Positions 6,458 to 34,696 are shown, counted from the first letter of the stretch. The stretch is DNA of 64,000 nucleotides from an uncultured Alphaproteobacteria bacterium (GCA_964597045.1 CAZQWE010000002.1:181175-245174), one strand, 5' to 3'. The notes: generated from the sequence alone by a model not told the origin. Numbers and translations are program-made.

Positions 6458-7810
6458 ATGGCTCAAATAAATACTTATCCAATTCAATGGCATGAAGGCA
6501 TGTTAATGATGCCCCAACATTTCCAAGAATCTGATACCCGTCTCGAGAATCTTGTCACATACTTTGTTTCACATGCTGTCCCCTTCTTTTGGGGAACTAT
6601 TAATATTAAAGTGGATGATGCCTTGTTAACTTCTGGAGTATTCAGACCACTTGAACTTGAAGCTATTATGCCGGACGGCTTACTTATATCAGGCCTTCCT
6701 GAATCTGAAACACCTCTTCAAATTGATTTGGAGCCATTTAGAGATAAACTTCAATCAACGCCTCTTTATATTTATCTTTGCGTTCCTCAGCAAAGAGGTG
6801 CTGATTTAGATATCGTAGGGGATTTGCCAAGGTACCAATCAACTCTTTCTAAAAATGTCGTTGATATGAATACAGGAGACCGCGCTATAGATATTCCACG
6901 CCTTTCTCCCAATCTTTCTCTACAAGTTTCAGATACTCCACCCGCTCATTATGTATGTCTACCACTGGCACAAGTGACTTGTAATGCCAAGAGCTACTCA
7001 CAGACAAATTATATTCCGCCACAATTACAAGTTCCTACAACCTCATCCCTTGGAGATTTGTGCAACCAGCTCACCTTCCGTCTGAGACAGAAGCTTGCCT
7101 ATTTGCAGCAGAAAGTTCAATCCGTCGAGAAGAGAGCAACGCGGGATCCTTTTTTTGAAGAAATCGAAGAGATAAGATTAAAGTTAATCGCCGGTCTTAT
7201 CCCCTTCGAAACAGTTCTTTCTATTGGCAAAGCCCATCCGTTTAGCATTTACCTTGAACTTTGCAGCCTGGCGGGGCTCATTTCCGGCGTAAAGTATGGG
7301 GAAATTCCCCCTCCCTTTGATGCCTACGATCATGATGATTTGAATCAAACCTTTAAGCAAGTCATAGTCTATATAGATAAAGTTTTATCTGAGATTGAAG
7401 AGAGTTACACAGTCATTCCTTTCATACTCACTGAACGTGTCTTTACGTTGCAACTTCAATCTTCCTGGGTTAGTGATCGATTGGTGCTGGGAGCAAGGGC
7501 ACAACCGAGCATGTCTGAAAGTGATCTCCTTGCTTGGATCAAGAACTGCGTCATTGTAACAAGTGAGTTTATTGGTCTCGCAAAGGATAACAGAGTTCTC
7601 GGAGTCCCGCGAAAAATCGTTTCAGAAATTCCAGAAATGAATTTAGTTCCCTCACGGGGAGTTCAATTGTTTGTCATTGATGTGAATCCACAATACATAG
7701 ATCCCAAAGGGGTTCTCTGCTTATTTAACGTATCAGACAATGAGCTGAATCGCCCAACTGAAATTGTGCTTTATAATTCAAATAAAGCCAGTTCAAGAAA
7801 GGGGAGTTAA
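6458..7810 (+). CDS. tssK: type VI secretion baseplate protein TssK
   Basis: N-terminal IQWHEGMLMMPQHFQ is the hallmark TssK/VasE start. Size is 450 aa. Gene context tssJ-K-L-M. Confidence 0.85.
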   Translation: MAQINTYPIQWHEGMLMMPQHFQESDTRLENLVTYFVSHAVPFFWGTINIKVDDALLTSGVFRPLELEAIMPDGLLISGLPESETPLQIDLEPFRDKLQSTPLYIYLCVPQQRGADLDIVGDLPRYQSTLSKNVVDMNTGDRAIDIPRLSPNLSLQVSDTPPAHYVCLPLAQVTCNAKSYSQTNYIPPQLQVPTTSSLGDLCNQLTFRLRQKLAYLQQKVQSVEKRATRDPFFEEIEEIRLKLIAGLIPFETVLSIGKAHPFSIYLELCSLAGLISGVKYGEIPPPFDAYDHDDLNQTFKQVIVYIDKVLSEIEESYTVIPFILTERVFTLQLQSSWVSDRLVLGARAQPSMSESDLLAWIKNCVIVTSEFIGLAKDNRVLGVPRKIVSEIPEMNLVPSRGVQLFVIDVNPQYIDPKGVLCLFNVSDNELNRPTEIVLYNSNKASSRKGS

Positions 7811-7881
7811 CCATTTATTAACTAAATTACGTATAAAATTTTAGAGATTTGTATACAATAAAATAATAATGAAAAACTGTT

Positions 7882-8700
7882 TTGCATGACAGTTTAGAAC
7901 TAAAAAAGGAAAGAGAATCGGTGGCCCGATTTAACAGAGATAACGAGCGTACTACTTTTATTGTGGAATGCTTTGAAGAATTTTACAGGGAAGTACTTAA
8001 GTACAAACAACTTGTGTATTCAAGAGCTTGGGAAAAAGCGAGTGAGGACTCGAGTTCATCACCAGAAGCCATTGCTGAATATATCATTTCAAATTTACAA
8101 AACTATTTAGAGCAACAAGCTAAAACTGTCTCTTATGGTGGTGATAGCTTTGCTGAAAACTATTATGATGAAGCCCAATTCATTATGGTTGCCCTTGCTG
8201 ATGAGGTTTTTCTCTCAATTGATTGGCCAGGCCGCAAATATTGGGAAACCAACTTGCTTGAACAGCGTTTATATAATTCTCATAGCGCAGGACAAACATT
8301 TTTCGACGCGCTTGATGAACTCTTAGAAGCCCAAAACCCCATCAGGATTGATATTGCGAGCTTATACTTGAGTGCCTTAGGTTTAGATTTCCAAGGAAAA
8401 TATCGTCATTTTAGTGATGAGGGTGCTTTGGAGTCCTATCGTAAAAGATTATTCTCCTTTATTAATCGGAGAGAACCCTATTTATTTAAAGTAAAAACCA
8501 CCCTATTTCCTGAAGCCTATTCTCATACGCTCGAAGGAAGTGGAACTAAAGAATTACCCAATTTACGTAATTGGTACTATGTATTTGCTGGTTTAGCTCT
8601 CACCTACTTACTTATTTCATATATAATTTGGTATAGTGCAACATGGGATATTTCGAGGATATTAAACCGAATCATTAGCTATAACACAGGTGGCATCTAG
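7882..8700 (+). CDS. tssL: type VI secretion membrane protein TssL (DotU family)
   Basis: DotU-like core (IMVALADEVFL...W...LLEQRLY...GQTFFDALDELL...SLYLSALGLDFQGKY) followed by a single C-terminal TM (YVFAGLALTYLLISYIIWY). The start is non-ATG (TTG at 7882, or GTG at 7921). Confidence 0.8.
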   Translation: MHDSLELKKERESVARFNRDNERTTFIVECFEEFYREVLKYKQLVYSRAWEKASEDSSSSPEAIAEYIISNLQNYLEQQAKTVSYGGDSFAENYYDEAQFIMVALADEVFLSIDWPGRKYWETNLLEQRLYNSHSAGQTFFDALDELLEAQNPIRIDIASLYLSALGLDFQGKYRHFSDEGALESYRKRLFSFINRREPYLFKVKTTLFPEAYSHTLEGSGTKELPNLRNWYYVFAGLALTYLLISYIIWYSATWDISRILNRIISYNTGGI

Positions 8701-8708
8701 AGGAAATC

Positions 8709-11700
8709 ATGATAAGCGATAATTTAACACGACTTACTTATTTATTTCCTTGGAGTATCATATTCGCGCTTCTGCTTGCCGCGTTATTTGCCTTTATTGG
8801 CATACTTATTTTTAGGCGTTCTATAAAAAAAGCAGAAGAGGGTCCCAAACCTGTAACCCCAAACCCCTTCTTTGAAAAATCAAAAATATTATTAGCCCGA
8901 TATGGTTATGCTGCAACTGATCAATTATCGATATCTTTTACGAAAGCTCTAAAGCTTTTACATAATTATATTGGTGGTTCTGAGTTCCGTTACCAACTCC
9001 CTTGGGTGGTGATGTTAGGTGCGAGCAGTTCTGGCAAAAGTACCCTTTTAGATAATCTTGAAGTTGATCGTCCTATTGGACGCCCTCTTTTTACAGCTGA
9101 AGGTGAAGATAAGCCCCTTTGTGATTGGGCATTTTTTGATCATGGAGTTGTTCTTGATGTCAATGGCAAGCTCGTTATTGATGCCAATCAAGCAAGATCC
9201 GACGAGGCTCTCTGGGATTTATTTCTTAATCTTCTTACAAGTCATCGACCGAAACGACCTGTTGACGGTGTTGTTATTAACATCCCTGTAACAGAGTTAA
9301 TTGGTAAAGAAGCCTTATCCCATGAAGACATCTTGATTCGTGCTGATTATATTTATGAAAAACTTTGGCAAATGCAAAAAACAACAGGTTTAAGAATTCC
9401 TGTTTACTTTGTAATTACAAAATCTGACCTCATCCCAGGTTTTGAGAGTTTTTGTAAGTCCATCCCAAACAATAATAAAACGAATATTTTTGGTTGGTCT
9501 AATGATAAATCAATTGATACTGTCTATGTGACGGATTGGGTTGATGAAGCCTTTTTTACGATCAATGAAGCGCTTTATGTGGCTCAGGAAGAGATTTATG
9601 CAGAGAGTAAAAACATTGATGGACGGGATGGAGTCTTCTTATTTCCCATGGCCTTAAATAAGGTCAGAAGTGGTATAAAGACATATGCAAATCACATCTT
9701 TAAACCTTCTGGATATCATGAGTCCTTTTTCTTCAGAGGCATCTACTTTGTTGGAGATAGCCATATAGAAAGATCAAGAGCGAAATCTCAAGGGATTTCG
9801 CGGTTAGCCGTATCAAAGGAAACTCGGTCCGATTCTAAAAGTAAGAACATCTATTTTATAAGAGATTTATTTGAAAAGAAAATTTTCAGAGAAATAGGTT
9901 TAGCAAGACCCGTATCAAGAGTTCTTTTAGGCAATACTAATTCTCTAAGACTGTTGAAAATTGGAGTCGTTATTGTTTCCATTTTGGGAACTCTTGAGTT
10001 ATTAATTTCCAACTCAAAATTAAATACAGCCAAAGTCAATCTAACACCCGTTCTTAAACAAGTTGAACTCTCCCTTGAGAAGATTCGCGGGCAGAGCGAC
10101 TCGGCAAGTAACAATCGAACATTTTTTTATGATCAGGCTCAAATGCTTTTGAATACAATGGCGCAAGTAAGAGCAAACTCTCTGTCCGCACCCTTTATTC
10201 CTGCTTCTTGGTTTTCGAATATAAATAGCAAAATAAGCTTCGTCATGGGACTTGCCTATGACCAAGTTATACTTAAATCCATGTCAAGCCAATTAGCCTA
10301 TAAAGCGCAGCAACTCGTCGATATCAACACGGTCCTTCCCGTAGCACAGCAGCCTGGGAATGGCATTGACCCTCTTCAAACTACAGAATTTTACCAACTG
10401 CAAAAGTATGTGCTTTCTATGAGAGAACTCGAACTTGCAACCAATAAATTCAATGAATTAGGGCTTGCTTCCAATTTGAAAGATGTCGCTGATATCATTA
10501 AATATCTTTTTGAATTTGACATGCCAGCTGAATTCCTTACCCATGATCTCTATTTTAAGGATGCTCTCGCTAAATCCCATAATAAGCTCTTTGATCTTGA
10601 GTCCTATAGAGAGGATGCATCAATTAAGCTGAATAAGTTATTTGATCAATTTGAAAATGCTGTTTTTGACCCTGTAAGGATGATTCCAGGCCTTGGATTC
10701 CTCATGACAAGTATTAATGCTATTTCAGGCTCCAATTACGGCACAGGAGGAGAAAGTCAAGCAGCTAATGATGTTGACAGCCTCCATCAAGTTTATCAAA
10801 GCCTTCAAGACACAAATAATTCTATAGCTAACCCAGGATTTAGTTGGTTAAACTATGATTATTTTAGTCCGGGCCCCCAATATGAATACGTTATGGGACA
10901 AATTTTTGAGTCAACAGTTTTTTCCGTATCAACATCAGCAGAACTTAAAACTGAAATTGATCAAAATTTTATCGGTTTCAGAAAGAAACTTGCTGAATAC
11001 AAATCGAGCCTCATTGATGGTGGGAATCTGTTTGATGTAGAAAATGGATTAGCCTTAGCTAGACCCTCACTCGGTTCACTTCGTTTACAACAAAACTTAG
11101 CCCTCTTCTTCTCCGAACCATTTATGGCTCGCGCTGAAGATCGCACAATTGTTGTCTCCATCCCCTTAGGATCTACACTCCTTTGGGATACCCTTCGACT
11201 ACAACAAAGTGTTTCTTTAATTAGTTCTTATAACGATTTTATTAATTCACGACTTTTAGGGCTTCCTAAGAATCTTCAACCCATGCTTCAAAAAGTAGCC
11301 CGAGAGAGTCTCGCTAGAAATCTCGTACAACAGATTGCCAACGCTCAAGTTTTAAGCACGGTGAACTTTAGAGAAAATAGCTTTGCACCTGAAGATGCTT
11401 TACTTACGCAAATTCAAAACTACCGTTCATCTGCACCCTTCCTTCAGCAAATTTTATTCTCATTAAATGCGAATAACATTAACGCAGCCTTTAGTACATT
11501 GAAGCAACTTCTTACTAATGAAAACTATAGTCTTTTAACGAAGCTTGATGGTATTTTAAGTGAAGAAGGACCGTATGCCATTAAAATGGATTCTTTCGAG
11601 TGGTGGAAGGGCAATAATATGGCAGCTCTTGAAGCGTATGGAGCAAATACTCTAGCTGAACTAAAGAATTATCTTGATCTTCAAAGAGATCGTATTGCCT

Positions 11701-12905
11701 ATCTTGCCCAAGAGTTTGCAGAACCGGTTGTTTCCTTCTTGGAACTCATTAACTCAGAGGGTATGCATGCTGATCTTCCTCTCATGAACAAATGGGCGGG
11801 TATCATCAATGAGCTGAATGGCTATAAACGCAAAGCGCCAGGAAATGGTCTCACTGAACTTGAATCATATATTTTGAAACCTCTTAATGAAGTAACACTT
11901 GACACCTGTGATAAGTATACCAAGCTGTATAACAATTACACATTAAAAGGCGATTATTTCGTTAATGTGCTTGTTGACTTGGAAGATAAACTCCATAAGC
12001 AGTGTGCAAACCTTTCAGGGTTTGTTTCAGTCGATAACTATACTCAACTGGCTAATTTCTTTAATGCAAACTTAGCAGGGCGTTTCCCCTTTACAGAGGA
12101 AGTCAAAGGGCAAGCAGATGCTTCTCCTGAGGACATAAGAACATTCTTCCAAATGATGGATTCTCAAGCCGCTGGAATAAAAGCCACCTTAAAGCAAGCC
12201 AAAGATTTAGGACCAGCCGGTAAAAAGGCTTTTGTCTTTATTGAGCAAATGGAAGGTGTCCGGAAATTCTTTGGTGGATTCTTGGTTCCAGATTCCTTGT
12301 TACCTTACCCTTCTTACACCTTTGATGTGGCTTTTAGGGTCAATAAACAAAGAGAAGTCAGAGGAAACGAAGTTCTTGATTGGCAAGTTACATCCGGTGG
12401 AACTACTTTTAATATGCGTTCGCCTTCTCATAAATGTGGATGGAAGGTTGGTAACCCTGTTAAAGTAACTTTTAGATGGGCGGCTAACAGTCCACTCCAA
12501 CCCCTTGTTACTGAAGGTTCCTCAGGATTATCTGTTGATGGTGAATATGCTAGCTATTCGTATGGTGGAACATGGGGACTTATTCGTCTCTTAAGAGAGC
12601 ATCAAGCTAAGACTTGTGATTTTGATAACTTAAATGATGATCAGCCAACGACTCTTCGTTTCAATATCCCTTTAACAAATGTAATGTCTGGTACTGGTCT
12701 GTCAAATACAGACCCACTAAAAGCTACAGTCTTTCTCAGATTTGTAACATCACCCGTGCCTAATCCAAAACCAAAGAAGGGTGAAGCTCCTAAAGAGGAA
12801 GAAGAATCCAAAGAAGGTGATCAAACAAAAATCAAAGTCGGCGAACCTGTTGCCCTACCCTTCTTCCCGTTCAATGCCCCTAATATCAAAGGAGCGGCGA
12901 TGTAA
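8709..12905 (+). CDS. tssM: type VI secretion membrane protein TssM (IcmF family), 1398 aa
   Basis: Walker A GASSSGKST (nt 9018-9044). IcmF motif PVYFVITKSDLIPGFESF. N-terminal TM plus a second TM near residue 415. Long periplasmic region. Charged K/E/P tail at the C-terminus. Confidence 0.9.
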   Translation: MISDNLTRLTYLFPWSIIFALLLAALFAFIGILIFRRSIKKAEEGPKPVTPNPFFEKSKILLARYGYAATDQLSISFTKALKLLHNYIGGSEFRYQLPWVVMLGASSSGKSTLLDNLEVDRPIGRPLFTAEGEDKPLCDWAFFDHGVVLDVNGKLVIDANQARSDEALWDLFLNLLTSHRPKRPVDGVVINIPVTELIGKEALSHEDILIRADYIYEKLWQMQKTTGLRIPVYFVITKSDLIPGFESFCKSIPNNNKTNIFGWSNDKSIDTVYVTDWVDEAFFTINEALYVAQEEIYAESKNIDGRDGVFLFPMALNKVRSGIKTYANHIFKPSGYHESFFFRGIYFVGDSHIERSRAKSQGISRLAVSKETRSDSKSKNIYFIRDLFEKKIFREIGLARPVSRVLLGNTNSLRLLKIGVVIVSILGTLELLISNSKLNTAKVNLTPVLKQVELSLEKIRGQSDSASNNRTFFYDQAQMLLNTMAQVRANSLSAPFIPASWFSNINSKISFVMGLAYDQVILKSMSSQLAYKAQQLVDINTVLPVAQQPGNGIDPLQTTEFYQLQKYVLSMRELELATNKFNELGLASNLKDVADIIKYLFEFDMPAEFLTHDLYFKDALAKSHNKLFDLESYREDASIKLNKLFDQFENAVFDPVRMIPGLGFLMTSINAISGSNYGTGGESQAANDVDSLHQVYQSLQDTNNSIANPGFSWLNYDYFSPGPQYEYVMGQIFESTVFSVSTSAELKTEIDQNFIGFRKKLAEYKSSLIDGGNLFDVENGLALARPSLGSLRLQQNLALFFSEPFMARAEDRTIVVSIPLGSTLLWDTLRLQQSVSLISSYNDFINSRLLGLPKNLQPMLQKVARESLARNLVQQIANAQVLSTVNFRENSFAPEDALLTQIQNYRSSAPFLQQILFSLNANNINAAFSTLKQLLTNENYSLLTKLDGILSEEGPYAIKMDSFEWWKGNNMAALEAYGANTLAELKNYLDLQRDRIAYLAQEFAEPVVSFLELINSEGMHADLPLMNKWAGIINELNGYKRKAPGNGLTELESYILKPLNEVTLDTCDKYTKLYNNYTLKGDYFVNVLVDLEDKLHKQCANLSGFVSVDNYTQLANFFNANLAGRFPFTEEVKGQADASPEDIRTFFQMMDSQAAGIKATLKQAKDLGPAGKKAFVFIEQMEGVRKFFGGFLVPDSLLPYPSYTFDVAFRVNKQREVRGNEVLDWQVTSGGTTFNMRSPSHKCGWKVGNPVKVTFRWAANSPLQPLVTEGSSGLSVDGEYASYSYGGTWGLIRLLREHQAKTCDFDNLNDDQPTTLRFNIPLTNVMSGTGLSNTDPLKATVFLRFVTSPVPNPKPKKGEAPKEEEESKEGDQTKIKVGEPVALPFFPFNAPNIKGAAM

Positions 12906-13957
12906 TGGCCTTTAATAACAACCTCTCCCTCTTCTTTGAATCCATATCAGATAACCCACCTTGTGGACCATCGCTCAGGTATTCAGAAACTTATGATAAA
13001 ATTAAAAATGCAAGACATGAGGAAGATGATCGGCTCGCTCAAGGTATCTGGAAAAGTGAAGTTAAAAAGGCCGATTGGGATATGGTGGACAGACTCTGTC
13101 GGGATACTCTTCAAACGAAATCAAAGGATTTGCAAATTGCCGCATGGCTAACTGAAGCCTGGCTCCACCTTGAAGGAATGGGAGGATTAACCCAAGGGTT
13201 AGAGCTCATTCTTGAGCTCACTAAAACCTATTGGGATAATATTCACCCTCAGATTGATCAAGGCAGCTTCGATTTGAGAATTGTCCCTTATGAATGGATC
13301 AACACGAGACTTAGTGAAGAAATTCAGTTTGTAAAGATTACCATGCCAGCAGCTCGAACAACCCTTCCCTATCATTTAGTCGACTATAATGACGCCAATC
13401 GACATGTTATTTCCGGAAAAAAAGATGGTGAACTTCCGACAGGTAAACCTTCGCTTTCTAAAATAACAACAAGCATTGAACAAACTCCAGCTGCTTTCTA
13501 TCAATCAATAGATGAGAATTGTAAGAAGGCCTTAGCTTTGATAGAGAACATTGAAGAACTCCTTCATGAAAAACTGGTCGGAGATACCCCTAGTTTTTAC
13601 CGAATAAAAGAAAAGATAAGCATCGTTCAACGCTTTGCCCAGCACATTCTTGCTGAAAGAGGTGAAAAAATGGCAGCCCTACACCCCACTCCAGAAGCGC
13701 CCACTAAAGAACCAACTTCCAAAAAGAAAACCCCTGGCCCAATTGACAGTCGTGACCAAGCTTATGCCATGCTTGGTGAAATTGCCTCTTATCTTGAAAA
13801 GATTGAACCCCATAGTCCAACCCCCTATTTGATTCGTCGCTCCATTACATGGGGTAGCATGACTCTCAGTGAAGTCTTTGCTGATGCCACAGCGAATGGG
13901 AAGGACCTATCGCTTATACTTGATATTCTGGATGTAAAGAAAGAAAATCAGCACTAA
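12905..13957 (+). CDS. tssA: type VI secretion protein TssA (ImpA N-terminal domain family)
   Basis: ImpA_N signature PCGPSLRYSETYDKIKNARHEEDD...ADWDMV...SKDLQIAAWLTEAW...GGL..GLELI. C-terminal EPHSPTPYLIRRSITWG motif. One-nt overlap with the tssM stop. Confidence 0.8.
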   Translation: MAFNNNLSLFFESISDNPPCGPSLRYSETYDKIKNARHEEDDRLAQGIWKSEVKKADWDMVDRLCRDTLQTKSKDLQIAAWLTEAWLHLEGMGGLTQGLELILELTKTYWDNIHPQIDQGSFDLRIVPYEWINTRLSEEIQFVKITMPAARTTLPYHLVDYNDANRHVISGKKDGELPTGKPSLSKITTSIEQTPAAFYQSIDENCKKALALIENIEELLHEKLVGDTPSFYRIKEKISIVQRFAQHILAERGEKMAALHPTPEAPTKEPTSKKKTPGPIDSRDQAYAMLGEIASYLEKIEPHSPTPYLIRRSITWGSMTLSEVFADATANGKDLSLILDILDVKKENQH

Positions 13958-14045: not shown

Positions 14046-16796
14046 ATGAAATATATTTACCCTTTGCTCTTCTCAACAATATTGTTTTTACGCCATGATG
14101 CTTTAGCTATGAACGATAACAATAATAATACTAAATATTCTGATGAAGATCCAATTCATCAACAAAGGAGAAAAGCAAGTGAAGACTTTTCAAAAGAAGT
14201 ACAAGAAAAATCTGATGTTCTTTTAAAAGCTGCCGATTCATTATTGAAGGATTCAGAGGACAATAAGCTTAAAGCTGCTATTGAAAAATGTAAAAAAGAG
14301 ATTTGCAGCTATCGTGAGAGTACTGTCAAGTCAACAATAGCTACTCGAGATAATAAACCTGTACTCCCCTTCTACGATCCCCATTTTGTAGATTTTGTTT
14401 CCTTCCATTTTTATCGTCAAGAAATCATAAATTTAGCTACAAGGTATAATAAAGGTTCTACGGAATATATTTTTTTTTATAAAACTTTTAATTATTTTAA
14501 TTTAATCGCGCAACATTTATCCGATCTACAAAAATTTTATTTACTAAATATTACACCTACAAAAAATAGTGCCCCATCTGATCCTTCAGCAAGAACTCCT
14601 ATGCATATAAATTCAAAGCATCTTTGGGAGAGAATTATAAAACTGAAGACCTTCTCATTGTCTTGTATTGAAGCAACTAACGTAGATAAACTTGATATAC
14701 CTTTAAATATGAAGGTTTATTTTAATGTCTGTTTTAAGGAAATGAAAGAAGAGTTAAATAATATTTGTTCTGATTGTCCCCTACAAATCGATGATATCAT
14801 CAATTCCAATAATGAAGAAAATCTTCAAACCTTTGATTCTTTGGTTTTTGAAAATTTTGATATAGTCAATAGTATGACTTCTTTTCTTTGTGGACATACT
14901 GGAATAGAACTTCTAAGTGCAACTAAACAACTTAGGTGGGTTTATCCTCTCAATTTTGATTTCTATAATGATGATAAAAAAGTTAAAGGTAGGGATAAAC
15001 TTACTAAGGATCAAATTGCCCCTAACATACCTATATTTGATGAAATGTGGAAAGATATTGTATGGAAATCTGATGATAAATCAAATACTGGCATTTCTTG
15101 GTTAAATCATTTAGAAGAAATTGATAATCCACAAGCGAATTTGCATGAAATAAAAACTTACGGTCAAGAATTTTTTACGGAATTCGAAGCAAGTTACCAA
15201 GATGTATGGAAAGCTCGTAAGGCTGTTGAAAAATCGCCCTTAAATGAAAAAGATAAAGCGATCGCCCTTAATATTCTGAAACAATCATTTGACTCTATGT
15301 CGAAGCACGGGGGGGCCATCAAGAGAGATGTTAATCAAGGGATCATAACAACTAGAGATGATGTTAATAGAATTACTTTTATCCCATATTGTAAACAGTA
15401 TCATCTTAGAAAGGCCTTGCACGAATTGCTTGCAAATAAAGAATATGAAACCATTCATGATGCAGTGAATAAGGCCCTCGATGCAATGGGTGTATTTGAA
15501 AGACACTTTTTACATCAAAACAATTTTCTTATTGATAACTTAGAGATTAAAGAGGGAGCTAAAATAGATGGGATTCAACGATATTGTATCACTTTCAATC
15601 CACGCAAAGCTCTCGTTAATTTAAAAATAAGAGCTCGGCAGTTAGAACTTATTGCCAGTTCTATTAATTTAGAACGCTTAAAGTTACCAGATGATTATAA
15701 GGCTCAAATTGCTGGCAAACAAAAGCTCCTAAGACAAGAACTTAAAAACCTTTTAAAAAATAATGAAATCAATAAAGTGATGAAGGCCCCACTATGGAAA
15801 ACACTTGATGTGGATTTATCCGGAGATTTAAAAGGTGTTACATTTGGAATACCTGATATGTTGATTACAAATGAAGAGCTTATAAGAAATGCATCTATTG
15901 CCTTTTTAAACCCCCTCATGATCACATTTGTTATGAATAACAATCAAATAATTTCGTTAACAAAGGATCAAATTGAAGAAAACCTTCCCTTATGGGATTC
16001 AATGTGTCTTAATTTCCAAGATAAGAAAACCGCTGTTACGGGAAACCAAAAACCTTCAGCAAATAAAGGAAAAAGTAAAAAGAAAGGAAGAAAGAAACAA
16101 GTAGTAATAGAAAAAAAGAAAAATAATATAGTTGTTCCTATTACAACTATTGTTCAACAAGATGAAAAACCTATTGTTGAGCAACCTAGCTTCGAACCAG
16201 TTACTGCCCCTAATGAACAAAACCTAGAAAAATGTGATAACCCCGCCCCATATAATGCAAAGAAGCAACGAGAAGAGCTTATTCTCTGGCTTAGAGATAT
16301 TTTAAATACTTCTAAGGAAAAGAAGGAGCTCTTTATCGTTTACGACCGTGCTCACTGCTTAGTCCGCCAATTGGACCATCATCCTGAGCTTTTTGATACG
16401 GAAGAATCCTTAAGCCCTCTTCAAGATATTGCGCAAAGACTTTGTGATCAAATATCTCATATTCAAAACAAATCTAAAGTCATAAAGAAGGAAAGAATCG
16501 CTGTGCCCTTTAGAGCTCTTCCCCTTTACTTGTCTTTTATGGAGTCCAGTGTATCCGACCTTGTTGGAATTCGATTTGGCCGTGTGAGAACGCTCTTTGA
16601 AAGTCTTGGCATTAAGATTGATACATCTCGTGCGGGTTCAAGAGTGCATTTTGAGTACGGAAACCATGCCACCTCAATCCATATCCATGATAAGCATGAT
16701 GAGCCGTTAGAAGGCGGCAGAATCTCCTCCCTTCGTAAATTCCTTTGGGAAATTGGATTTACGACTGATGATGGAGATGAAGAGGAATCAAATTGA
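14046..16796 (+). CDS. secreted orphan protein, paralog A: signal peptide, divergent helical body, Lys-rich linker, conserved C-terminal HicA-like module
   Basis: Signal peptide MKYIYPLLFSTILFLRHDALA (the ATG at 14046 is preferred over the TTG at 14034). Full-length collinear similarity to the next gene. The last 105 aa are identical to paralog B. Confidence 0.7.
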   Translation: MKYIYPLLFSTILFLRHDALAMNDNNNNTKYSDEDPIHQQRRKASEDFSKEVQEKSDVLLKAADSLLKDSEDNKLKAAIEKCKKEICSYRESTVKSTIATRDNKPVLPFYDPHFVDFVSFHFYRQEIINLATRYNKGSTEYIFFYKTFNYFNLIAQHLSDLQKFYLLNITPTKNSAPSDPSARTPMHINSKHLWERIIKLKTFSLSCIEATNVDKLDIPLNMKVYFNVCFKEMKEELNNICSDCPLQIDDIINSNNEENLQTFDSLVFENFDIVNSMTSFLCGHTGIELLSATKQLRWVYPLNFDFYNDDKKVKGRDKLTKDQIAPNIPIFDEMWKDIVWKSDDKSNTGISWLNHLEEIDNPQANLHEIKTYGQEFFTEFEASYQDVWKARKAVEKSPLNEKDKAIALNILKQSFDSMSKHGGAIKRDVNQGIITTRDDVNRITFIPYCKQYHLRKALHELLANKEYETIHDAVNKALDAMGVFERHFLHQNNFLIDNLEIKEGAKIDGIQRYCITFNPRKALVNLKIRARQLELIASSINLERLKLPDDYKAQIAGKQKLLRQELKNLLKNNEINKVMKAPLWKTLDVDLSGDLKGVTFGIPDMLITNEELIRNASIAFLNPLMITFVMNNNQIISLTKDQIEENLPLWDSMCLNFQDKKTAVTGNQKPSANKGKSKKKGRKKQVVIEKKKNNIVVPITTIVQQDEKPIVEQPSFEPVTAPNEQNLEKCDNPAPYNAKKQREELILWLRDILNTSKEKKELFIVYDRAHCLVRQLDHHPELFDTEESLSPLQDIAQRLCDQISHIQNKSKVIKKERIAVPFRALPLYLSFMESSVSDLVGIRFGRVRTLFESLGIKIDTSRAGSRVHFEYGNHATSIHIHDKHDEPLEGGRISSLRKFLWEIGFTTDDGDEEESN
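16470..16783 (+). repeat. near-identical 3' tract of paralog A (copy 1 of 2)
   Basis: 16470-16657 is identical to 19231-19418 (188 nt, offset 2761). The next ~125 nt carry 8 substitutions, all synonymous. Confidence 0.9.
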
Positions 16797-16875
16797 AATA
16801 CAGAGGCAATCTCTCCCTTGATTTTTTCATCTAAATATTTATGTATAATAATATAATTATTTTTTGGTGAGCATT

Positions 16876-19557
16876 ATGAAATATATTTATCCTTTCCTTT
16901 TATCAACATTTTTAATTTATTCAAACGATGCCTTCGCAATGAAGGGGAGAAACCCTGTAGAAACTTCGGATCAGAAAAAAGCTAAGAACCAGAATAGATT
17001 AGATGTGTTTCTTCAAGAACTTGAAGAAGGATGTCCTAAATTATTAAAAGAAGCTGAAGCTCTCATTCCCATACTAGGTGAAAGAGAAAGAGAGAGTATC
17101 GAATCTTCAAAAGGGGCAATACAGAAATTCTATGAAAAAACCAAAGATGCTATTCACGCTTGTCGAACTGCTCCTTCTGCTGCTCAGGATCCCTGTTTCG
17201 TATCCTATTTGACTTACTTTCCACTTAGAGAAACCTTAGTTGTTGCAATAAACAAGAACACTCATACAGAAGTACGACAATATTTTTCTAATATGTTTAA
17301 TTATATCAATCAATATGAAGAACATTTAAGCCCTCAGGAGATGTTCTATTTTCTTACACACGTATGTGAAGGCGAGTCCATTCAATGGGATCCAAACTTT
17401 GCTTGGTCGAAAATACTTCAATTAAAAAGATTTTCACTAGCTTGTCTTGAAGCAACTAAATTGGATGATTTAGATATCTCTCGTACTTTCAAACAAGGCT
17501 TTGGCCTCTTTTTTGATAAATTTAAGAAACAATTGAACACCATTCCAGATGACCTCTTAAGTCAGTGTGCAGCAAGAAACCTGAATCCGAGTAATGATAT
17601 CTTAAAATCGATCCAATTGATCAATTCTTTCTTAACGACAGTTTGTGGAATTAGTGCGACTTCTTTACTTCTTACACAAAAACAACCCGAAATATGTTTC
17701 CCTGTAAATCAAATCTTCAATATCGATGGTAAGATGTACCAACTCCCACAAGATGAGATTGCCAGAAATATGACCCGTGCCAAAAACATGTGGAAACATG
17801 TCGTTTGGACTATTGAACCTCTTGAGCAATTTCAATTGTACTTGCAAAATCCATTGAGACAAGAAAAGCCTAAATCTGCTGTTATGCTGAAAAAGTTAAC
17901 TTTAGGTGAAGTATACAAAGCCGAACTCAAGAAGAGCCATGATGATTTATGGCATACTGAAAGAGCCGTGCAGAAAATGGAACTCCCAGTAAAATACAAA
18001 GAAAACGTAAACGCTTTGTTTAGTAAATGCTTTGCATCTATGCGCTATGCCGTCAATGGAATTTACAAAGCTACAACTCATAGTTCTACAAATTTGGAAA
18101 TTGATAGCAGTACTCTGATCCCATATTGCGTCCAATTCCCTCTACGTAAGGGACTGCATGAAGTGCTTGCAACTGAAGACTTATCAGAAATACATGAACA
18201 TGCTCAAAAGGCGTTAGATGCTCTGGGTATTTTTGAGAGGTATTCTTCAAACGAGACTGAGTTCCTTATCAAGAATTTAGACATCCAGCTCACATCGAAT
18301 AAAAATCCATTTGTGCCTGTATATGAAATTCGTTTTAATGCACGTAAAGCCATCGTAAATTTGAGAGCCAAAGCAAGGAACCTATACCTCATAGCTGACC
18401 ATATAAGACTTGATAAACTTCATTTGCCCAAAGAATACGAGTCACGTCTTGCAACTAAGCTTAAGGAAATGAAAGACAAAGTTTTAAAGATAAGTTTCAT
18501 GAAATTCGGAGCCAAGTTCTGGCAAGATCCAGCCTGGAAAACAACTTCTCTTGATCTAGCGTCGGAAAAAACTACAGAGTTTTTGAGAATCCAACCAAAA
18601 CTCCAAGAAATCGTTGGCATTATTAGTGAAGCTACTCCGAATATTTTAAATCCTCTTTTTGTTCCTATCTTTAAGGATGACTATGGCACCTTACTCTTAA
18701 CTCTTGCTGAAGCAACCGAAAGACTCCCCTTATGGGATCAGATGTGTATGTCCATGCCAGTAAATAAACCTGCTTTTAAAGAACCGGTCCAAAAGAAAGA
18801 AGTGAAAAAGAAGAAGAAACAACAACCTGTTAGAACACCACAGCACAAACCTAAGGAAACCAAAAAGGGTTCTTTACTCACACAAGAAACTCCAACGGTA
18901 TTAGAGACTGAACCTGCGCTTCAACCTTCTAAATTAGCAGCGGTTGAACCAGCATCAATCTCTTCAGCTGTACAGCCAAAAACAGAAGTATCAGTCGTGT
19001 CTGAGATTGAAACACCTCAAAAGCCGCGGGAAGAATTGATTGTATGGCTTCAGGATATTATGAAGCAATCAGCAGTCGATAAGGAGAAGTGTTTCCATAT
19101 CTTTGGAAGAGCTTATGCCCTCTCCCGACAATTGTCACAACATCCTGATCTGTTTGAAACGGAGGAATCCTTAAGACCTCTTCAAGATATAGCACAAGGC
19201 CTTTGTGATCAAATGTCTCACATTCAAAAAAAATCTAAAGTCATAAAGAAGGAAAGAATCGCTGTGCCCTTTAGAGCTCTTCCCCTTTACTTGTCTTTTA
19301 TGGAGTCCAGTGTATCCGACCTTGTTGGAATTCGATTTGGCCGTGTGAGAACGCTCTTTGAAAGTCTTGGCATTAAGATTGATACATCTCGTGCGGGTTC
19401 AAGAGTGCATTTTGAGTATGGAAACCATGCAACCTCAATCCATATCCATGATAAGCATGATGAGCCGTTAGAAGGTGGCAGAATCTCCTCACTTCGTAAG
19501 TTCCTATGGGAAATTGGGTTTACGACGGATGATGGAGATGAAGAAGATGATCAGTAA
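16876..19557 (+). CDS. secreted orphan protein, paralog B: signal peptide, divergent helical body, Lys-rich linker, conserved C-terminal HicA-like module
   Basis: Signal peptide MKYIYPFLLSTFLIYSNDAFA (ATG at 16876). The upstream 30 nt also resemble those of paralog A. The duplication period is 2830 nt at the start codons. Confidence 0.7.
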   Translation: MKYIYPFLLSTFLIYSNDAFAMKGRNPVETSDQKKAKNQNRLDVFLQELEEGCPKLLKEAEALIPILGERERESIESSKGAIQKFYEKTKDAIHACRTAPSAAQDPCFVSYLTYFPLRETLVVAINKNTHTEVRQYFSNMFNYINQYEEHLSPQEMFYFLTHVCEGESIQWDPNFAWSKILQLKRFSLACLEATKLDDLDISRTFKQGFGLFFDKFKKQLNTIPDDLLSQCAARNLNPSNDILKSIQLINSFLTTVCGISATSLLLTQKQPEICFPVNQIFNIDGKMYQLPQDEIARNMTRAKNMWKHVVWTIEPLEQFQLYLQNPLRQEKPKSAVMLKKLTLGEVYKAELKKSHDDLWHTERAVQKMELPVKYKENVNALFSKCFASMRYAVNGIYKATTHSSTNLEIDSSTLIPYCVQFPLRKGLHEVLATEDLSEIHEHAQKALDALGIFERYSSNETEFLIKNLDIQLTSNKNPFVPVYEIRFNARKAIVNLRAKARNLYLIADHIRLDKLHLPKEYESRLATKLKEMKDKVLKISFMKFGAKFWQDPAWKTTSLDLASEKTTEFLRIQPKLQEIVGIISEATPNILNPLFVPIFKDDYGTLLLTLAEATERLPLWDQMCMSMPVNKPAFKEPVQKKEVKKKKKQQPVRTPQHKPKETKKGSLLTQETPTVLETEPALQPSKLAAVEPASISSAVQPKTEVSVVSEIETPQKPREELIVWLQDIMKQSAVDKEKCFHIFGRAYALSRQLSQHPDLFETEESLRPLQDIAQGLCDQMSHIQKKSKVIKKERIAVPFRALPLYLSFMESSVSDLVGIRFGRVRTLFESLGIKIDTSRAGSRVHFEYGNHATSIHIHDKHDEPLEGGRISSLRKFLWEIGFTTDDGDEEDDQ
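19231..19544 (+). repeat. near-identical 3' tract of paralog B (copy 2 of 2)
   Basis: Same alignment as 16470-16783. Confidence 0.9.
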
Positions 19558-22267: not shown

Positions 22268-23482
22268 TTAATGTTCCGCCCACTGAATGGAGCGAATGTC
22301 TATACCTTGACGACTCATCTCCCACAAAGGACTCATGTCACGTAATCGGTTAACTTCCTTAATAATTTTCTGGGCTGCAATATCAACTTCTTCTTCCGTG
22401 GTGAATCGACCAAACCCGATACGGAGCGAGGTATGAGCCATCTCTTCCTCTACACCTAAAGCTCTTAGAACATAGGACGGCTCCAGAGAAGCCGATGTAC
22501 AGGCTGAGCCAGAAGAAACAGCCAGCTCCTTTATTCCCATCATGAGTCCTTCTCCTTCAACATGAGCAAAGCTCAAGTTAAGATTTCCAGGAATCCTCTT
22601 GTTCCCATCCCCATTCAAATAGACTTCGTCTAAAGCCTCTTTGATATGATTATGAAACCTTTCCGCTAAGGTTTTGATTCGTTCTGCTTCAGCTCCCATT
22701 TCTTTTTGGGCAATGGCACACGCTTCTCCTAGGCCAACACAAAGAGGGGGAGATAATGTCCCTGATCGCATTCCACGCTCTTGTCCTCCTCCATTGATGA
22801 GGGATTGCAATCGAATCCGTGGTTTCCGTCGCACATAAAGGGCTCCAATTCCCTTTGGCCCATAAATCTTATGACCAGAAATACTGAGAAGATCTATGTT
22901 CATAGCTTCAACATCAAGAGGAATTTTTCCCACAGCTTGAGCTGCATCCGTATGAAAAAACACCCCTTTTTCGTGGCACATTTTTCCAATCTTTTCAATG
23001 GGTTGAATGACACCAATTTCATTATTAACAACCATAATTGAAACAAGAACTGTCCGATCTGTGATGGCTGCATTCAAGGTTTCTAAATCAATGAGTCCGT
23101 CTTTGTTCACGGGCAAATAGGTTACCTTAAACCCTTCCTGTTCAAGATGGCGACAACTATCGAGCACACACTTATGTTCCGTTGCACACGTTATGATGTG
23201 ATCCTTATCAGCCTTATAAAAGTGAGCCACACCTTTGATGGCTAAGTTATTTGATTCTGTCGCGCCGCTTGTAAAGATGACTTCTCGAGGATCAGCATGA
23301 ATAAGTTCAGCGACCTGAGCTCTTGCCTTCTCGACGGCTTGTTCGGCAACCCAACCAAAGGCATGATTACGAGAATGAGGATTGCCATACTCTTCCGTAA
23401 AATACGGCAACATGGCCTGCAGAACTCTAGGGTCACAAGGTGTTGTGGCTTGATAATCAAGATAAATTGGACGCGAAACCAT
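22268..23482 (-). CDS. iscS: cysteine desulfurase IscS
   Basis: 404 aa class V aminotransferase. [12 protein letters not shown] (PLP lysine) and SSGSACTS active-site loop. C-terminal tail typical of IscS. Confidence 0.9.
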
Positions 23483-24561
23483 TAAGAAACATCCCTCATT
23501 TTTTGAGAACTATAAATCGTCTTCCATGCCTTGATGAAAGCATCGATATCACTTGCTTGTGTTGCCCATCCAAAGCTCACACGAATGGCACATCTTGCTT
23601 CATCATAGGGAACACCCATTGATGTTAAGACATGGGATACTTTCATTTTACCGGATGAACAAGCTGACCCTGCACTAATCGCAATATTTTCAATATCAAA
23701 AGCAATAATTTGCAGTTCCGTTGGAACACCTGGCATCCCAAGGCAAGAGACATGAGGTGTGCGGTGTGCACCACTGCCAAATACCCTCGCTTCAGGGAGA
23801 GAGTTTTCAATATGAGATTGAAAAACTCTTAATCTCTCTTGATCTTCATTAATTGCGACTTTTAAGGCTTCTGTGAAACCGAGGATGAGTGGGGTTGAAA
23901 GTGTTCCTGAACGCATTCCATACTCTTGACCTCCCCCCGGTATTATGGGTTCAAGATGAATATTATCCTTCATGACAATTGCACCAACCCCAACAGGCCC
24001 CCCACACTTGTGTGAGGAAAGCGTCATAAGATCCACATCATAGGTGTCAAATGAAATCGGTACATGGCCCACAGCTTGTGTCGCATCCGTATGAACCGTC
24101 CACCCTTTTGCATGAGCAAGACGTGTAGCTTCTGCCAAAGGTTGTATGACACCAGTCTCATTATTAACGAGCATTACAGAGAGTAAACCAGGCTTTTCAA
24201 AACTGTTTAGAAGCATTTCTAAGGCATCAAGATCCACGATACCCTTTCCATTCACAGGAATAATGTGAGGGTTAGATACAGATTTCTGAACGGAATCGTG
24301 TTCAATCGCTGAAGTCAAAACAGGTAAATTGAGACCTCTTAACGCGAGCACATTCGCTTCCGTTCCACCACCTGTAAAGATGACTCGATCCCCTTTTGTT
24401 ATCTCTAGAATCTGTGCCCTTGCATCATCAATTCGTGATCGTAACCTTCGTCCTAAACCATGCGGGGAGGACGGGTTACCAAGCAAATCTAGAGCATGAA
24501 TGATTGCTTCTTTGGCCTCCGGCCTTAAAGGTGTAGAGGCATTATAATCGAGATATATCAC
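23482..24561 (-). CDS. second cysteine desulfurase (NifS-like paralog)
   Basis: 359 aa. [10 protein letters not shown] (PLP lysine) and SAGSACSSG. One-nt overlap with the iscS start and 4-nt overlap with the iscR stop. This tandem arrangement is known from Rickettsiales. Confidence 0.85.
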
Positions 24562-25893: not shown

Positions 25894-26543
25894 CAAAACT
25901 CATGACGTCTTCCGAAATAGAACGTTTCTTCGAACACCTTGACGCCGCCAATCCTGAACCCAAAGGTGAGCTCTATTCAACAAACACATACACTTTATTG
26001 GTAGCTGTTGTTCTCTCTGCCCAAGCAACCGATAAGGGCGTAAACAAAGCAACACCTGCCTTATTTGCTGTGGCTGACACGCCTCAAAAAATGCTGAATC
26101 TCGGGGAAGAGAATCTTAAAAATTATATCAACACTATAGGTCTCTATAACTCAAAGGGCCGCAATATTATGGGTCTTTCTCAGAAACTCATTGAATCCTT
26201 TGGAGGAGAAGTCCCTTCAAACATAGAAGACTTAATTACCCTGCCTGGAGTTGGGCGTAAAACAGCCAATGTTGTCTTGAATGGCGCCTTTGGAGAGGCC
26301 GTTATCGCCGTTGACACCCACATCTTTAGAGTGTCAAACCGAACTGGTCTTGCGCCGGGCAAAACACCCCATGACGTTGAAAAGCAGCTCATGAAAAGAA
26401 TTCCAGTTAAATGGATTAAACGCGCCCATCATTGGCTTGTTCTTCACGGTCGCTATATTTGCAAGGCAAGACAACCACTGTGTCCAACCTGTCCCGTTCA
26501 AAACGAATGTCATTACCCTTATAAAACAACAGCAAATCCATGA
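25890..26543 (+). CDS. nth: endonuclease III
   Basis: HhH-GPD motif LPGVGRKTANVVL. C-terminal 4Fe-4S cluster loop CKARQPLCPTCPVQNEC. Confidence 0.95.
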   Translation: MTKLMTSSEIERFFEHLDAANPEPKGELYSTNTYTLLVAVVLSAQATDKGVNKATPALFAVADTPQKMLNLGEENLKNYINTIGLYNSKGRNIMGLSQKLIESFGGEVPSNIEDLITLPGVGRKTANVVLNGAFGEAVIAVDTHIFRVSNRTGLAPGKTPHDVEKQLMKRIPVKWIKRAHHWLVLHGRYICKARQPLCPTCPVQNECHYPYKTTANP

Positions 26544-27370
26544 CTCTGCATGAGTGGCGGGACCACATCACCTCTATATTATCACAAGCCTTATTTGAAA
26601 ACGCGAGCCTAGAGGCCAAGTGGTTGCTTGAGGCATTGACACAAAAAAACTGCACCTTAAGCCCCAACTATACCTTATCCTCATCGGAAGAGCTAAAGCT
26701 GAATGAATGGCTTGAGAGACGTCTCAAATCAGAACCACTCTCCCGCATTAAAGGAATCAGAGAGTTTTGGAGCCTTCCCTTTTATATTAATGAACACACA
26801 CTTGATCCGCGTCCTGAGACGGAGCTTATTGTGAAGGCTGTCATTGCGAGGAGTGACGTTCCTACAGAACGTATTCTCGACCTTGGCACTGGATCCGGGT
26901 GCATCCTCATTTCCCTTCTGTACGAGCTTAAAAATGCGACTGGCGTGGGTGTAGATATTAATCAAGGTGCACTTGATATAGCCAAAATAAATGCAAGTCA
27001 GAATGGAGTTAGCGAGCGTATTACATTTGTTCAAAGCAATTGGGGAGACAACCTCAAGGAACAATTCAATATTATTGTCAGTAATCCTCCCTACATCCCA
27101 ACGACCGATATTGAAGAGTTGGAAAAGACTGTGAAGGATTACGATCCCCATCTTGCCTTAGATGGAGGAGCTGACGGTCTTGATTGTTATAGACTTATAG
27201 CTAAAAATATGAAGCATCTCTTGAAGGAAGATGGATTCTTTCTATTTGAGATTGGGCAAGGACAAAGACGCCAAGTTGAAGAGATTTTGAAGCATGAGGG
27301 ATTCGGTAATTTGTTTTCCCTGAAGGATTACAATGGGATAGAGAGAGTCATTGGGGGATTTAGTCAGTGA
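26540..27370 (+). CDS. prmC: release factor glutamine methyltransferase PrmC/HemK
   Basis: SAM motif LDLGTGSGC and catalytic NPPY (SNPPYIP). 4-nt overlap with nth. Confidence 0.9.
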   Translation: MTLHEWRDHITSILSQALFENASLEAKWLLEALTQKNCTLSPNYTLSSSEELKLNEWLERRLKSEPLSRIKGIREFWSLPFYINEHTLDPRPETELIVKAVIARSDVPTERILDLGTGSGCILISLLYELKNATGVGVDINQGALDIAKINASQNGVSERITFVQSNWGDNLKEQFNIIVSNPPYIPTTDIEELEKTVKDYDPHLALDGGADGLDCYRLIAKNMKHLLKEDGFFLFEIGQGQRRQVEEILKHEGFGNLFSLKDYNGIERVIGGFSQ

Positions 27371-34693: not shown

Positions 34694-34696
34694 CTC

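Follow-up and report, generated by a model that had tools for sequence, protein, structure and literature searches.

HicA toxins (PF07927; structures 6g26, 5yrz and 6hpb) are free cytoplasmic proteins of 60 amino acids (aa) that come with HicB. The residue after their Gly-Ser pair is the catalytic histidine (PMC9424270), their genes have been surveyed in 14 genetic contexts (bioRxiv 10.1101/2023.12.08.570793), and HicA domains also end some polymorphic toxins, namely S8-PTS/BetaH and one Rhs toxin (PMC9424270). Here we describe two adjacent genes, P1 and P2, in a stretch of 64,000 nucleotides from an uncultured Alphaproteobacteria bacterium (GCA_964597045.1, CAZQWE010000002.1:181175-245174; the whole stretch is called the window), which encode large proteins with predicted signal peptides and a common C-terminal tail. 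The tail resembles HicA in a predicted alpha-beta-beta-beta-alpha arrangement over ~60 residues and in a G-S-x at the active-site position; unlike HicA, it ends signal-peptide proteins of 520-920 aa and is not accompanied by HicB. None of the 14 surveyed contexts is a signal-peptide protein with a constant, catalytically altered tail. P1 and P2 also share with the polymorphic toxins the layout of a large exported multidomain protein ending in a domain of (here predicted) HicA fold. In those toxins, however, the C-terminal domain is variable, keeps the catalytic histidine, is ~50% identical to toxin-antitoxin HicAs and is followed by an immunity gene, whereas the tail of P1 and P2 is constant, highly divergent and lacks such a gene.

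A second point of comparison is the concerted evolution of tandem paralogs, for example in surface-protein and effector families. P1 and P2 share with these a short tract of low synonymous divergence, nested boundaries, anciently diverged duplicates and a dispersed paralog that has not been homogenized; the one point of note is the restriction of conversion to the 3' module; the 5' leader and signal peptide form another short stretch of similarity. As to the organism, a split type VI secretion system (T6SS) with a separate tssK-tssL-tssM-tssA block, such as the one that precedes P1, is typical of three families of Holosporales, the Bodocaedibacteraceae, Paracaedibacteraceae and Caedimonadaceae (PMC8163844), and the source bacterium is probably a Holosporales-like alphaproteobacterium and a protist symbiont. 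We regard it as moderately probable that P1 and P2 are tandem duplicates within a small, lineage-restricted family of modular, Sec-exported proteins of Holosporales-like bacteria, with a homogenized tail and a fast-evolving role in host interaction.

Results

P1 and P2 are old tandem duplicates

The two open reading frames (ORFs) lie on the same strand, 79 nt apart, and P2 is followed by a convergent hscA gene:

14046-16796, + strand: P1, predicted exported paralog, 916 aa from its ATG (ORF and BLASTP; its ortholog is P0003 in the related strain L001)
16876-19557, + strand: P2, predicted exported paralog, 893 aa from its ATG (ORF and BLASTP; the single member of its 90% cluster among ~15 billion proteins)

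A P2 start listed at 16864 is an in-frame TTG upstream of this ATG. An initial annotation, made from the sequence alone, had described the genes as collinear tandem paralogs ending in 105 identical residues, and BLASTP bears this out: the proteins align end to end at 39% identity (E = 0), their final 105 residues are identical, and the bodies are 30-40% identical against 100% for the tail. In a codon-aligned Nei-Gojobori scan, the proportion of synonymous differences (pS) in the bodies is 0.53-0.86 and that of non-synonymous differences (pN) is 0.35-0.55. In the bodies, synonymous change has reached saturation, which shows that the duplication is old. P1 has the lowest GC content within the window (GC 0.32 in its body, and 0.25 at third codon positions, GC3).

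Similarity is seen at the starts of the genes as well. Judged by eye, the sequences between about -17 and +36 of each ATG are roughly 87% identical, and the similar stretch covers a TTTTTTGGTG.GCATT-ATG leader and the codons of the MKYIYP signal peptide, in agreement with the earlier remark that the sequences upstream of both ATGs resemble each other. All the features that the initial annotation described are present where it had placed them.

Gene conversion has repeatedly homogenized the 3' ends

The identity of the tails extends to the DNA, where three intervals can be distinguished:

16470-16657, + strand: identical tract in P1, the most recent gene-conversion tract (exact match to 19231-19418)
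19231-19418, + strand: identical tract in P2 (exact match to 16470-16657)
16380-16782, + strand: whole low-divergence 3' region of P1 (87%, 100% and 94% identity in succession), aligned with P2 19141-19543

The exact repeat of 188 nt was recovered as it had been reported. With the genes compared ungapped at the same offset, identity is 57% just upstream of 16380 (13 differences in 30 nt), rises to 87% at P1 16380-16469 (12 differences in 90 nt), is complete in the tract, and falls to 94% at P1 16658-16782, where the 8 differences in 125 nt are all synonymous (0 non-synonymous), exactly as the initial annotation had counted them. The tract thus has 0 differences in 188 nt against 20 in 215 nt for its own flanks (Fisher p = 2.4e-6). 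Alignment columns 781-840, mostly low-divergence 3' sequence before the tract, have a pS of 0.24 and a pN of 0.11; the block after them contains the greater part of the tract and has a pS of 0.05 and a pN of 0. The sliding-window analysis that the initial annotation had proposed reveals that pS, saturated in the bodies, collapses in the tail, and because selection at the protein level cannot erase synonymous differences, this collapse requires recent recombination between the copies.

A dispersed third family member, P0005/P0157, agrees with this. Its C-terminal module is only 40% identical to that of P1 and P2 (P0005 was found in the same metagenome as L001, and P0157 is a 97% identical copy on a 259-kb contig of an NCBI assembly, probably of the window's own genome), and the identity of the P1 and P2 tails is therefore a by-product of their adjacency and not of functional need. 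The mosaic was compared in two strains, the window and L001 (contig 000066 of the JGI metagenome assembly 3300034069). The L001 ortholog of P1 has two differences inside the 188-nt tract, one of them non-synonymous, both at sites where P1 and P2 of the window agree, and at its extreme 3' end it carries the states ACG and GAAGAT, as in the window P2 and unlike the window P1. We conclude that the last ~400 nt of P1 and P2 have been homogenized repeatedly by intrachromosomal gene conversion, the newest tract being 188 nt long. The gene conversion proposed in the initial annotation is thus upheld by the low pS of the tail (0.05-0.24), the mosaic boundaries and the divergent module of the dispersed paralog. 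GC3 is 0.34 in the module, 0.32 in the P2 body and 0.31-0.36 in neighbouring genes, against the 0.25 of the P1 body, which weakly suggests a P2-to-P1 direction of transfer. These short conversion events are limited to the 3' module and perhaps to the 5' leader and signal peptide. Such concerted evolution is mechanistically ordinary, indeed textbook.

Could the identical tract be a collapsed or chimeric repeat of the assembly, as the initial annotation itself had warned? An exact repeat of 188 nt, 2.7 kb from its copy and about as long as a short read, would invite such an error. Both ORFs, however, are intact, in frame and furnished with their own flanking substitutions (12 upstream and 8 downstream), the graded identity of 57, 87, 100 and 94% is typical of nested conversion tracts and not of a mis-join, and the independent JGI assembly of L001 carries the same P1 module, with the two tract differences, without P2 nearby. 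Judged by this independent assembly, a collapse is highly improbable.

The C-terminal module is under purifying selection as well, as the initial annotation had also suggested; judged from the sequences, the signs are the 8 synonymous and 0 non-synonymous differences in the last 125 nt and the standing of the module as the best-conserved part of the family. These same two facts would be expected if purifying selection, whether it acts on the protein or on an RNA or antisense element embedded there, were the sole cause of the identity, with no recombination at all. That explanation is the least credible of those considered here, given a pS of 0.05 in the tract block and saturation elsewhere, and given two L001 substitutions within the tract, one of them non-synonymous. 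An explanation of the tract by RNA structure was tried and rejected (no unusual fold, z = +1.1). No credible antisense gene covers the tract, the only antisense ORF being 48 aa long.

The position of P2 is a replaceable slot

Comparison with L001, which matches the window at 99.1-99.4% identity in the flanks, delimits a further feature:

16799-19532, + strand: strain-variable slot comprising almost the whole of P2 together with its leader (compared with L001 12757-14400)

In L001 the slot is 1.6 kb long and holds an unrelated orphan gene for a 535-aa protein with its own signal peptide (MLKQSAVYVLITLSFLTSSTPILA...), which has no match in Pfam or NCBIfam and no relative in the window or at the other loci. 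One junction falls at the P1 stop codon and the other within the final two or three codons of the genes that are exchanged, where the common sequence ...ATCAGTAATCAGG is found. The position of P2 is therefore a replaceable slot between strains. Because the divergence of P1 from P2 long predates the split of the strains, either L001 has lost P2 and acquired a replacement, or the window strain has imported it. At this slot, cassettes are turned over at the strain level. P1 itself differs between the strains by 6 synonymous and 10 non-synonymous changes, a ratio of non-synonymous to synonymous rates (dN/dS) of 0.42, compared with 0.00-0.10 for the four tss genes and 0-0.26 for those housekeeping genes that have any changes. 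The turnover of the slot and the raised dN/dS of P1 fit accessory genes for host interaction or the cell surface.

Two further observations concern the same comparison. The interval bounded by tssA/P1 and hscA acts like a hot spot at which secreted orphan genes are placed. Divergence from L001 is also uneven along the window: a prmC-like methyltransferase gene (26540-27370) has a pS of 0.09 and 15 non-synonymous changes, tssM and tssA have a pS of ~0.04, the SPOR-domain gene and the neighbouring orf247 have 0 changes, and dapB and nth have one each. This unevenness looks like a mosaic of recombination imports.

A modular layout with a duplicated core domain

The segments into which the proteins can be divided are, in order:

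14046-14108, + strand: predicted Sec signal peptide of P1, MKYIYPLLFSTILFLRHDALA with cleavage before M (read from the sequence)
16876-16938, + strand: predicted Sec signal peptide of P2, MKYIYPFLLSTFLIYSNDAFA with cleavage before M (read from the sequence)
16939-17895, + strand: extra N-terminal copy of the core domain, P2 residues ~22-340 (hhalign; P1 equivalent ~14109-15152)
17902-18750, + strand: family core domain, P2 residues ~343-625 (profile hits in ~20 members; P1 equivalent ~15159-16010)
18784-19017, + strand: predicted disordered segment, a Lys-rich patch resembling a nuclear-localization signal (NLS) and then a Pro/Glu/Ser-rich linker, P2 residues ~637-714 (AlphaFold2, AF2; P1 equivalent ~16044-16259)
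19024-19530, + strand: conserved C-terminal module of ~170 aa, P2 residues ~717-885 (AF2, Foldseek and alignment; P1 equivalent ~16263-16769)

Read by eye, both N-termini start with an MK n-region, continue with a hydrophobic core of 13 residues and have an A-x-A site (ALA before M in P1, AFA before M in P2), so that the MKYIYP-type beginnings do resemble signal peptides, as had been noticed. Of the 20 family members of full length, 17 have a hydrophobic stretch at the N-terminus. The core domain, of ~290 aa, carries the motifs IPYC.Q..LRK.LHE, a GIQRY-type hairpin and L.LP..YE (IPYC.Q..L.K.LH and L.LP..YK across the family). The N-terminal extension aligns with the core domain of other members with an hhalign probability of 96.3% (E = 1.8e-9, 240 columns), compared with at most 0.7% for the controls (reversed, and 20 column-shuffled). 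P1 and P2 are longer than their relatives because residues ~22-340 form this second copy, and the internal duplication is restricted to these two within the family. P1 and P2 go back to an old tandem duplication, before which the ancestral gene had both core domains, and their bodies diverged rapidly afterwards.

The full-length AF2 model of P2 has a mean predicted local distance difference test score (pLDDT) of 74.6. It comprises a helical N-terminal core copy (residues 31-305, pLDDT 64-88), the core domain (~343-625, pLDDT ~85-96), a disordered linker (637-714, pLDDT below 50) and a compact C-terminal module (717-885). A patch with at least 6 Lys or Arg in 12 residues occurs in 19 of the 20 full-length members, and in ~16 of them it lies 190-243 residues before the G-S-R motif of the module. 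Foldseek with the full-length model returned only generic helical matches, with no fold relative of the core domain in the Protein Data Bank (PDB), and Pfam, NCBIfam and PADLOC gave nothing relevant for P1 or P2 apart from the sub-threshold HicA_toxin match considered below.

The C-terminal module is HicA-like in predicted fold

A separate AF2 model of the module, based on 21 family sequences, has a pLDDT of 90.7 and shows three long helices followed by an alpha-beta-beta-beta-alpha unit (helix 111-120; strands 124-126, 133-138 and 141-146; helix 157-170). HicA toxins are the only compact and specific structural matches to it in the PDB: Foldseek aligns it with 6g26_E at a template-modelling (TM) score of 0.71 (root-mean-square deviation, rmsd, 2.2 A; 62 columns; probability 0.87) and with 5yrz_B at a TM score of 0.72 (rmsd 2.3 A). 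The Pfam HicA_toxin profile (PF07927) matches 8 of the 21 members in register with the model, the best at E = 0.009 and all of them sub-threshold. G131-S132-R133, H146 (of an H.HD motif), G158 and R164 are invariant in the 21 aligned members, and H148 and D149 nearly so; the invariant His residues of the module sit on the third strand instead of after the Gly-Ser pair. The module is thus HicA-like, or like a dsRBD (a domain for binding double-stranded RNA), in its modelled fold but not a demonstrated member of HicA, and because an invariant Arg stands in place of the catalytic His, its chemistry would have to differ if it is an enzyme. When hhalign compared the HicA-like segment with E. coli HicA alone, the wrong helices were aligned at low probability. 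A weak tblastn match to the module at 54331-54432 on the - strand was rejected as chance, since it runs antisense inside a Band_7 gene.

A predicted HicA-like fold at the C-terminus (here in an AF2 model) could mark antibacterial proteins of the polymorphic-toxin kind, with a C-terminal HicA-type RNase and immunity provided in cis or elsewhere; HicA domains do end some such toxins (PMC9424270), and related endosymbionts carry polymorphic toxin systems (PMC8163844). Several observations make this improbable. The polarity is reversed, with a constant tail and a variable body; the catalytic His has become an invariant Arg; there are no orphan toxin cassettes; PADLOC returned no match and the Pfam matches are sub-threshold; and no immunity or HicB-like ORF lies beside any member examined. 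In particular, no such ORF of at least 40 aa is present between or after P1 and P2 except for chance antisense ORFs, and P0005 and P0006 lie among housekeeping genes, without such an ORF. The initial annotation had likened the pair to an inverse of the polymorphic-toxin pattern. It described the polarity correctly, but the comparison is misleading for a HicA/dsRBD-like module that lacks the catalytic His and is accompanied by neither an immunity gene nor orphan modules.

Alternatively, the module might be a sorting, secretion or surface-anchoring domain that is kept identical because both paralogs dock on one partner. Constant C-terminal modules of 100-170 aa on diverse bodies are known from XVIPCD of Xanthomonas type IV secretion effectors, from the C-terminal domain (CTD) of the type IX secretion system and from BID of Bartonella, and several signal-domain families are built as a variable body plus a constant module of ~170 aa. 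The module is, moreover, the most conserved part of the family, and some members end in basic tails (RRVGR, RRVR or KKRK). It shares, however, no sequence or fold similarity with XVIPCD, the CTD or BID, no secretion system is linked to the genes as a candidate partner, and P1 and P2 carry predicted Sec signal peptides. The 40% identity of the dispersed module, invariant polar residues (R, H, H/D and R) that resemble a ligand-binding or active site more than a docking surface, and gene conversion, which explains the identity of P1 and P2 with no need for a shared partner, also speak against a docking role, which we consider unlikely, if somewhat less so than a polymorphic toxin.

The family appears restricted to one clade

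When 1.84 billion cluster representatives were searched by HMMER with a P1/P2 profile, only 32 proteins reached E <= 1e-3, and 24 of these also passed E <= 1e-10. Most are 520-710 aa long, and they have one common architecture of a signal-peptide-like segment, core, K-rich linker and C-terminal module. In a word-indexed homology search, P2 retrieved only itself and the alignment of the module retrieved only two fragments. Scanning the GTDB species representatives with a pattern for the module gave eight loci, seven in metagenome-assembled genomes (MAGs) titled 'Alphaproteobacteria bacterium' and the eighth, a weak one, in a SAR324 MAG. The P1/P2 alignment gave no match among these representatives, and the source genome therefore seems to be absent from the set. 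Three of the family contigs (L004, L005 and L009) carry orthologs of housekeeping genes of the window at 58-87% amino-acid identity, and judged by these shared orthologs the family appears limited to a single clade, of which the window genome is part. At least one MAG (L005, L007) has two family copies on different contigs. The novelty lies in an unannotated, clade-restricted family of predicted exported proteins that combine a new core domain with a tail like that of HicA.

In MAG JAKFXB01 (L009 1668-2120 and 2375-6406), orthologs (67-87% identity) of window 32538-36550 are immediately preceded by a family member, a position at which the window has no family gene; family genes are inserted variously relative to a conserved backbone. 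The C-termini of P0007, P0009, P0015, P0019 and P0020 form a short basic tail (...RRVGR, ...IRRVR, ...SSKKRK, ...YMRRR), whereas P1 and P2 end in an acidic one (TTDDGDEE...), a difference that may reflect different sorting or partners.

Adjacency to the T6SS block is probably incidental

P1 and P2 directly follow tssA on the same strand:

6458-13957, + strand: tssK-tssL-tssM-tssA block, a neighbour only (Pfam)

From this position the initial annotation had put the pair forward as candidate T6SS cargo or accessory factors encoded with the block. T6SS is kept in nearly all Holosporineae, with unknown substrates (PMC11909080), and the family is apparently confined to a clade whose published relatives carry a split T6SS. 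The association does not hold at other loci. In a tblastn search with the TssK, TssL, TssM and TssA of the window, the nine other family loci (L002-L010, with 10 kb on either side where available) gave no match, and the family genes there sit among housekeeping genes at differing chromosomal positions; within this range, the co-occurrence with tss genes that the initial annotation had proposed to look for is not seen. Conversely, a metagenome scan with TssA found three relatives (L012-L014; TssA identity 53-58%) that keep the block TIM-SPOR-orf247-TssK-L-M-A. In L013 and L014, the two whose sequence continues past tssA, synteny ends at the tssA stop codon, with no family member after it; the translations there read as a small secreted or chance ORF, a cold-shock-domain protein, EamA-type transporters and SecA.

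Because other family loci lack tss genes and the tss blocks of relatives lack a family member, P1 and P2 are a lineage-specific insertion beside tssA, with probably incidental adjacency, and not part of the T6SS locus. The proposal of T6SS cargo is further weakened by the near-identical strain L001, which has an unrelated gene in place of P2, and by Pfam and NCBIfam searches in which P1 and P2 showed none of the effector markers (PAAR, Rhs, MIX, FIX, VgrG, Hcp or the DUF4123/DUF2169 adaptors). Predicted Sec signal peptides across the family are atypical for T6SS substrates and favour another route, and T6SS effectors usually cluster with vgrG and hcp, which in these genomes are placed at other loci (PMC8163844). 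We doubt the proposal of T6SS cargo as strongly as we doubt a polymorphic toxin.

Directly upstream of tssK lie genes for a SPOR-domain protein and an unannotated 247-aa ORF, orf247 (window 4703-6453), a position kept in the genus-level relatives L012-L014. These two may be accessory parts of this non-canonical T6SS, for instance in peptidoglycan anchoring or as a substitute for TssJ.

Other features of the window

Three more large ORFs have no Pfam match, and NCBIfam gave nothing or far-sub-threshold noise for them: 29-3778 (1249 aa), 27527-30580 (1017 aa) and 56894-58948 (684 aa). None of the three contains the C-terminal module; their products are additional candidates for lineage-specific effectors or surface proteins. 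The - strand at 36715-39594 encodes an autotransporter of 959 aa that has a beta-domain and a PATR repeat, and so a type V surface route exists in the organism. The convergent isc/hsc operon downstream of P2 includes Rrf2 (iscR-type), NifU_N (iscU-type), Fe-S_biosyn (iscA-type), hscB and hscA, and within it, at 22268-24561 on the - strand, two tandem genes for class V aminotransferases of the cysteine desulfurase type. A scan for promoters and terminators was uninformative, finding sites no more numerous than in shuffled sequences.

Discussion

The function of P1 and P2 can be outlined only conditionally. As members of a Sec-exported family, they would leave the cytoplasm via Sec, and their site of action would be the surface of the bacterium or the host. 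Their variable core domains would give specificity, and the common tail a common activity, which the modelled fold suggests would most likely be the binding of nucleic acid (RNA), possibly also its cleavage. The Lys-rich patch that precedes the tail could act as a nuclear-localization or nucleic-acid-binding element.

A bolder version, for which PRP1 of Holospora obtusa is the model, would make the family a hitherto unrecognized class of host-directed effectors of Holosporales-type protist symbionts; these proteins would pass from the periplasm into the host and be targeted to its nucleus by a Lys-rich, NLS-like patch, with an Arg-for-His, HicA/dsRBD-like tail that binds or cuts host RNA and with duplicated, fast-evolving cores that set the specificity for host or target. 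PRP1 is a periplasmic protein of 63 kDa that has a putative signal peptide, is released into the host macronucleus and binds nucleic acid (PMC9866348). Its source falls within the same broad group of bacteria, its size is near that of typical family members (520-710 aa) and it, too, has a putative signal peptide, a likeness that is an analogy by description only; PRP1 also reportedly has a D5_N motif, whereas none was found in P1 or P2. We hold this version to be possible but doubtful.

Several points weigh against our preferred reading, that of a lineage-restricted, Sec-exported family with a HicA-like tail and a role in host interaction. On the side of the tail, none of the Foldseek E-values reaches significance, which is to be expected when a domain of 60 residues sits in a query of 183, and the P2 module reaches only 15 bits with the Pfam HicA_toxin profile (E = 0.026), below the gathering cut-off of 27. 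Module profiles found no HicA or other meaningful match among PDB sequences, and hhalign against 120 E. coli-type HicAs was negative, with the wrong helices aligned at low probability, although this set of HicAs was too narrow for a fair profile. The catalytic His of HicA is absent, its place being taken by the Arg of G-S-R in 21 of 21 members. As to export, the signal peptides were judged from the sequences by eye and by hydrophobicity only, and no route across the outer membrane was identified. The assignment to Holosporales rests only on gene order compared with published descriptions and on MAG titles that read 'Alphaproteobacteria bacterium', the linkage to T6SS was judged from local neighbourhoods (10 kb on either side), and the function is inferred throughout.

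The locus is of wider interest. P1 and P2 are a clean small example of gene conversion, and as such a warning against reading identity as constraint, or adjacency to tssA as linkage. The predicted fold of the module places a HicA-type arrangement outside the toxin-antitoxin and defence context, on a signal-peptide protein, and would extend the known uses of this fold. Finally, Holosporales are a large group of obligate protist symbionts in which the mechanisms of interaction are essentially unstudied and, for most members, no secreted molecule is known (PMC11909080). A clade-restricted, multi-copy, fast-evolving family of predicted exported proteins with a confidently modelled tail offers concrete candidates for such secreted molecules of Holosporales.

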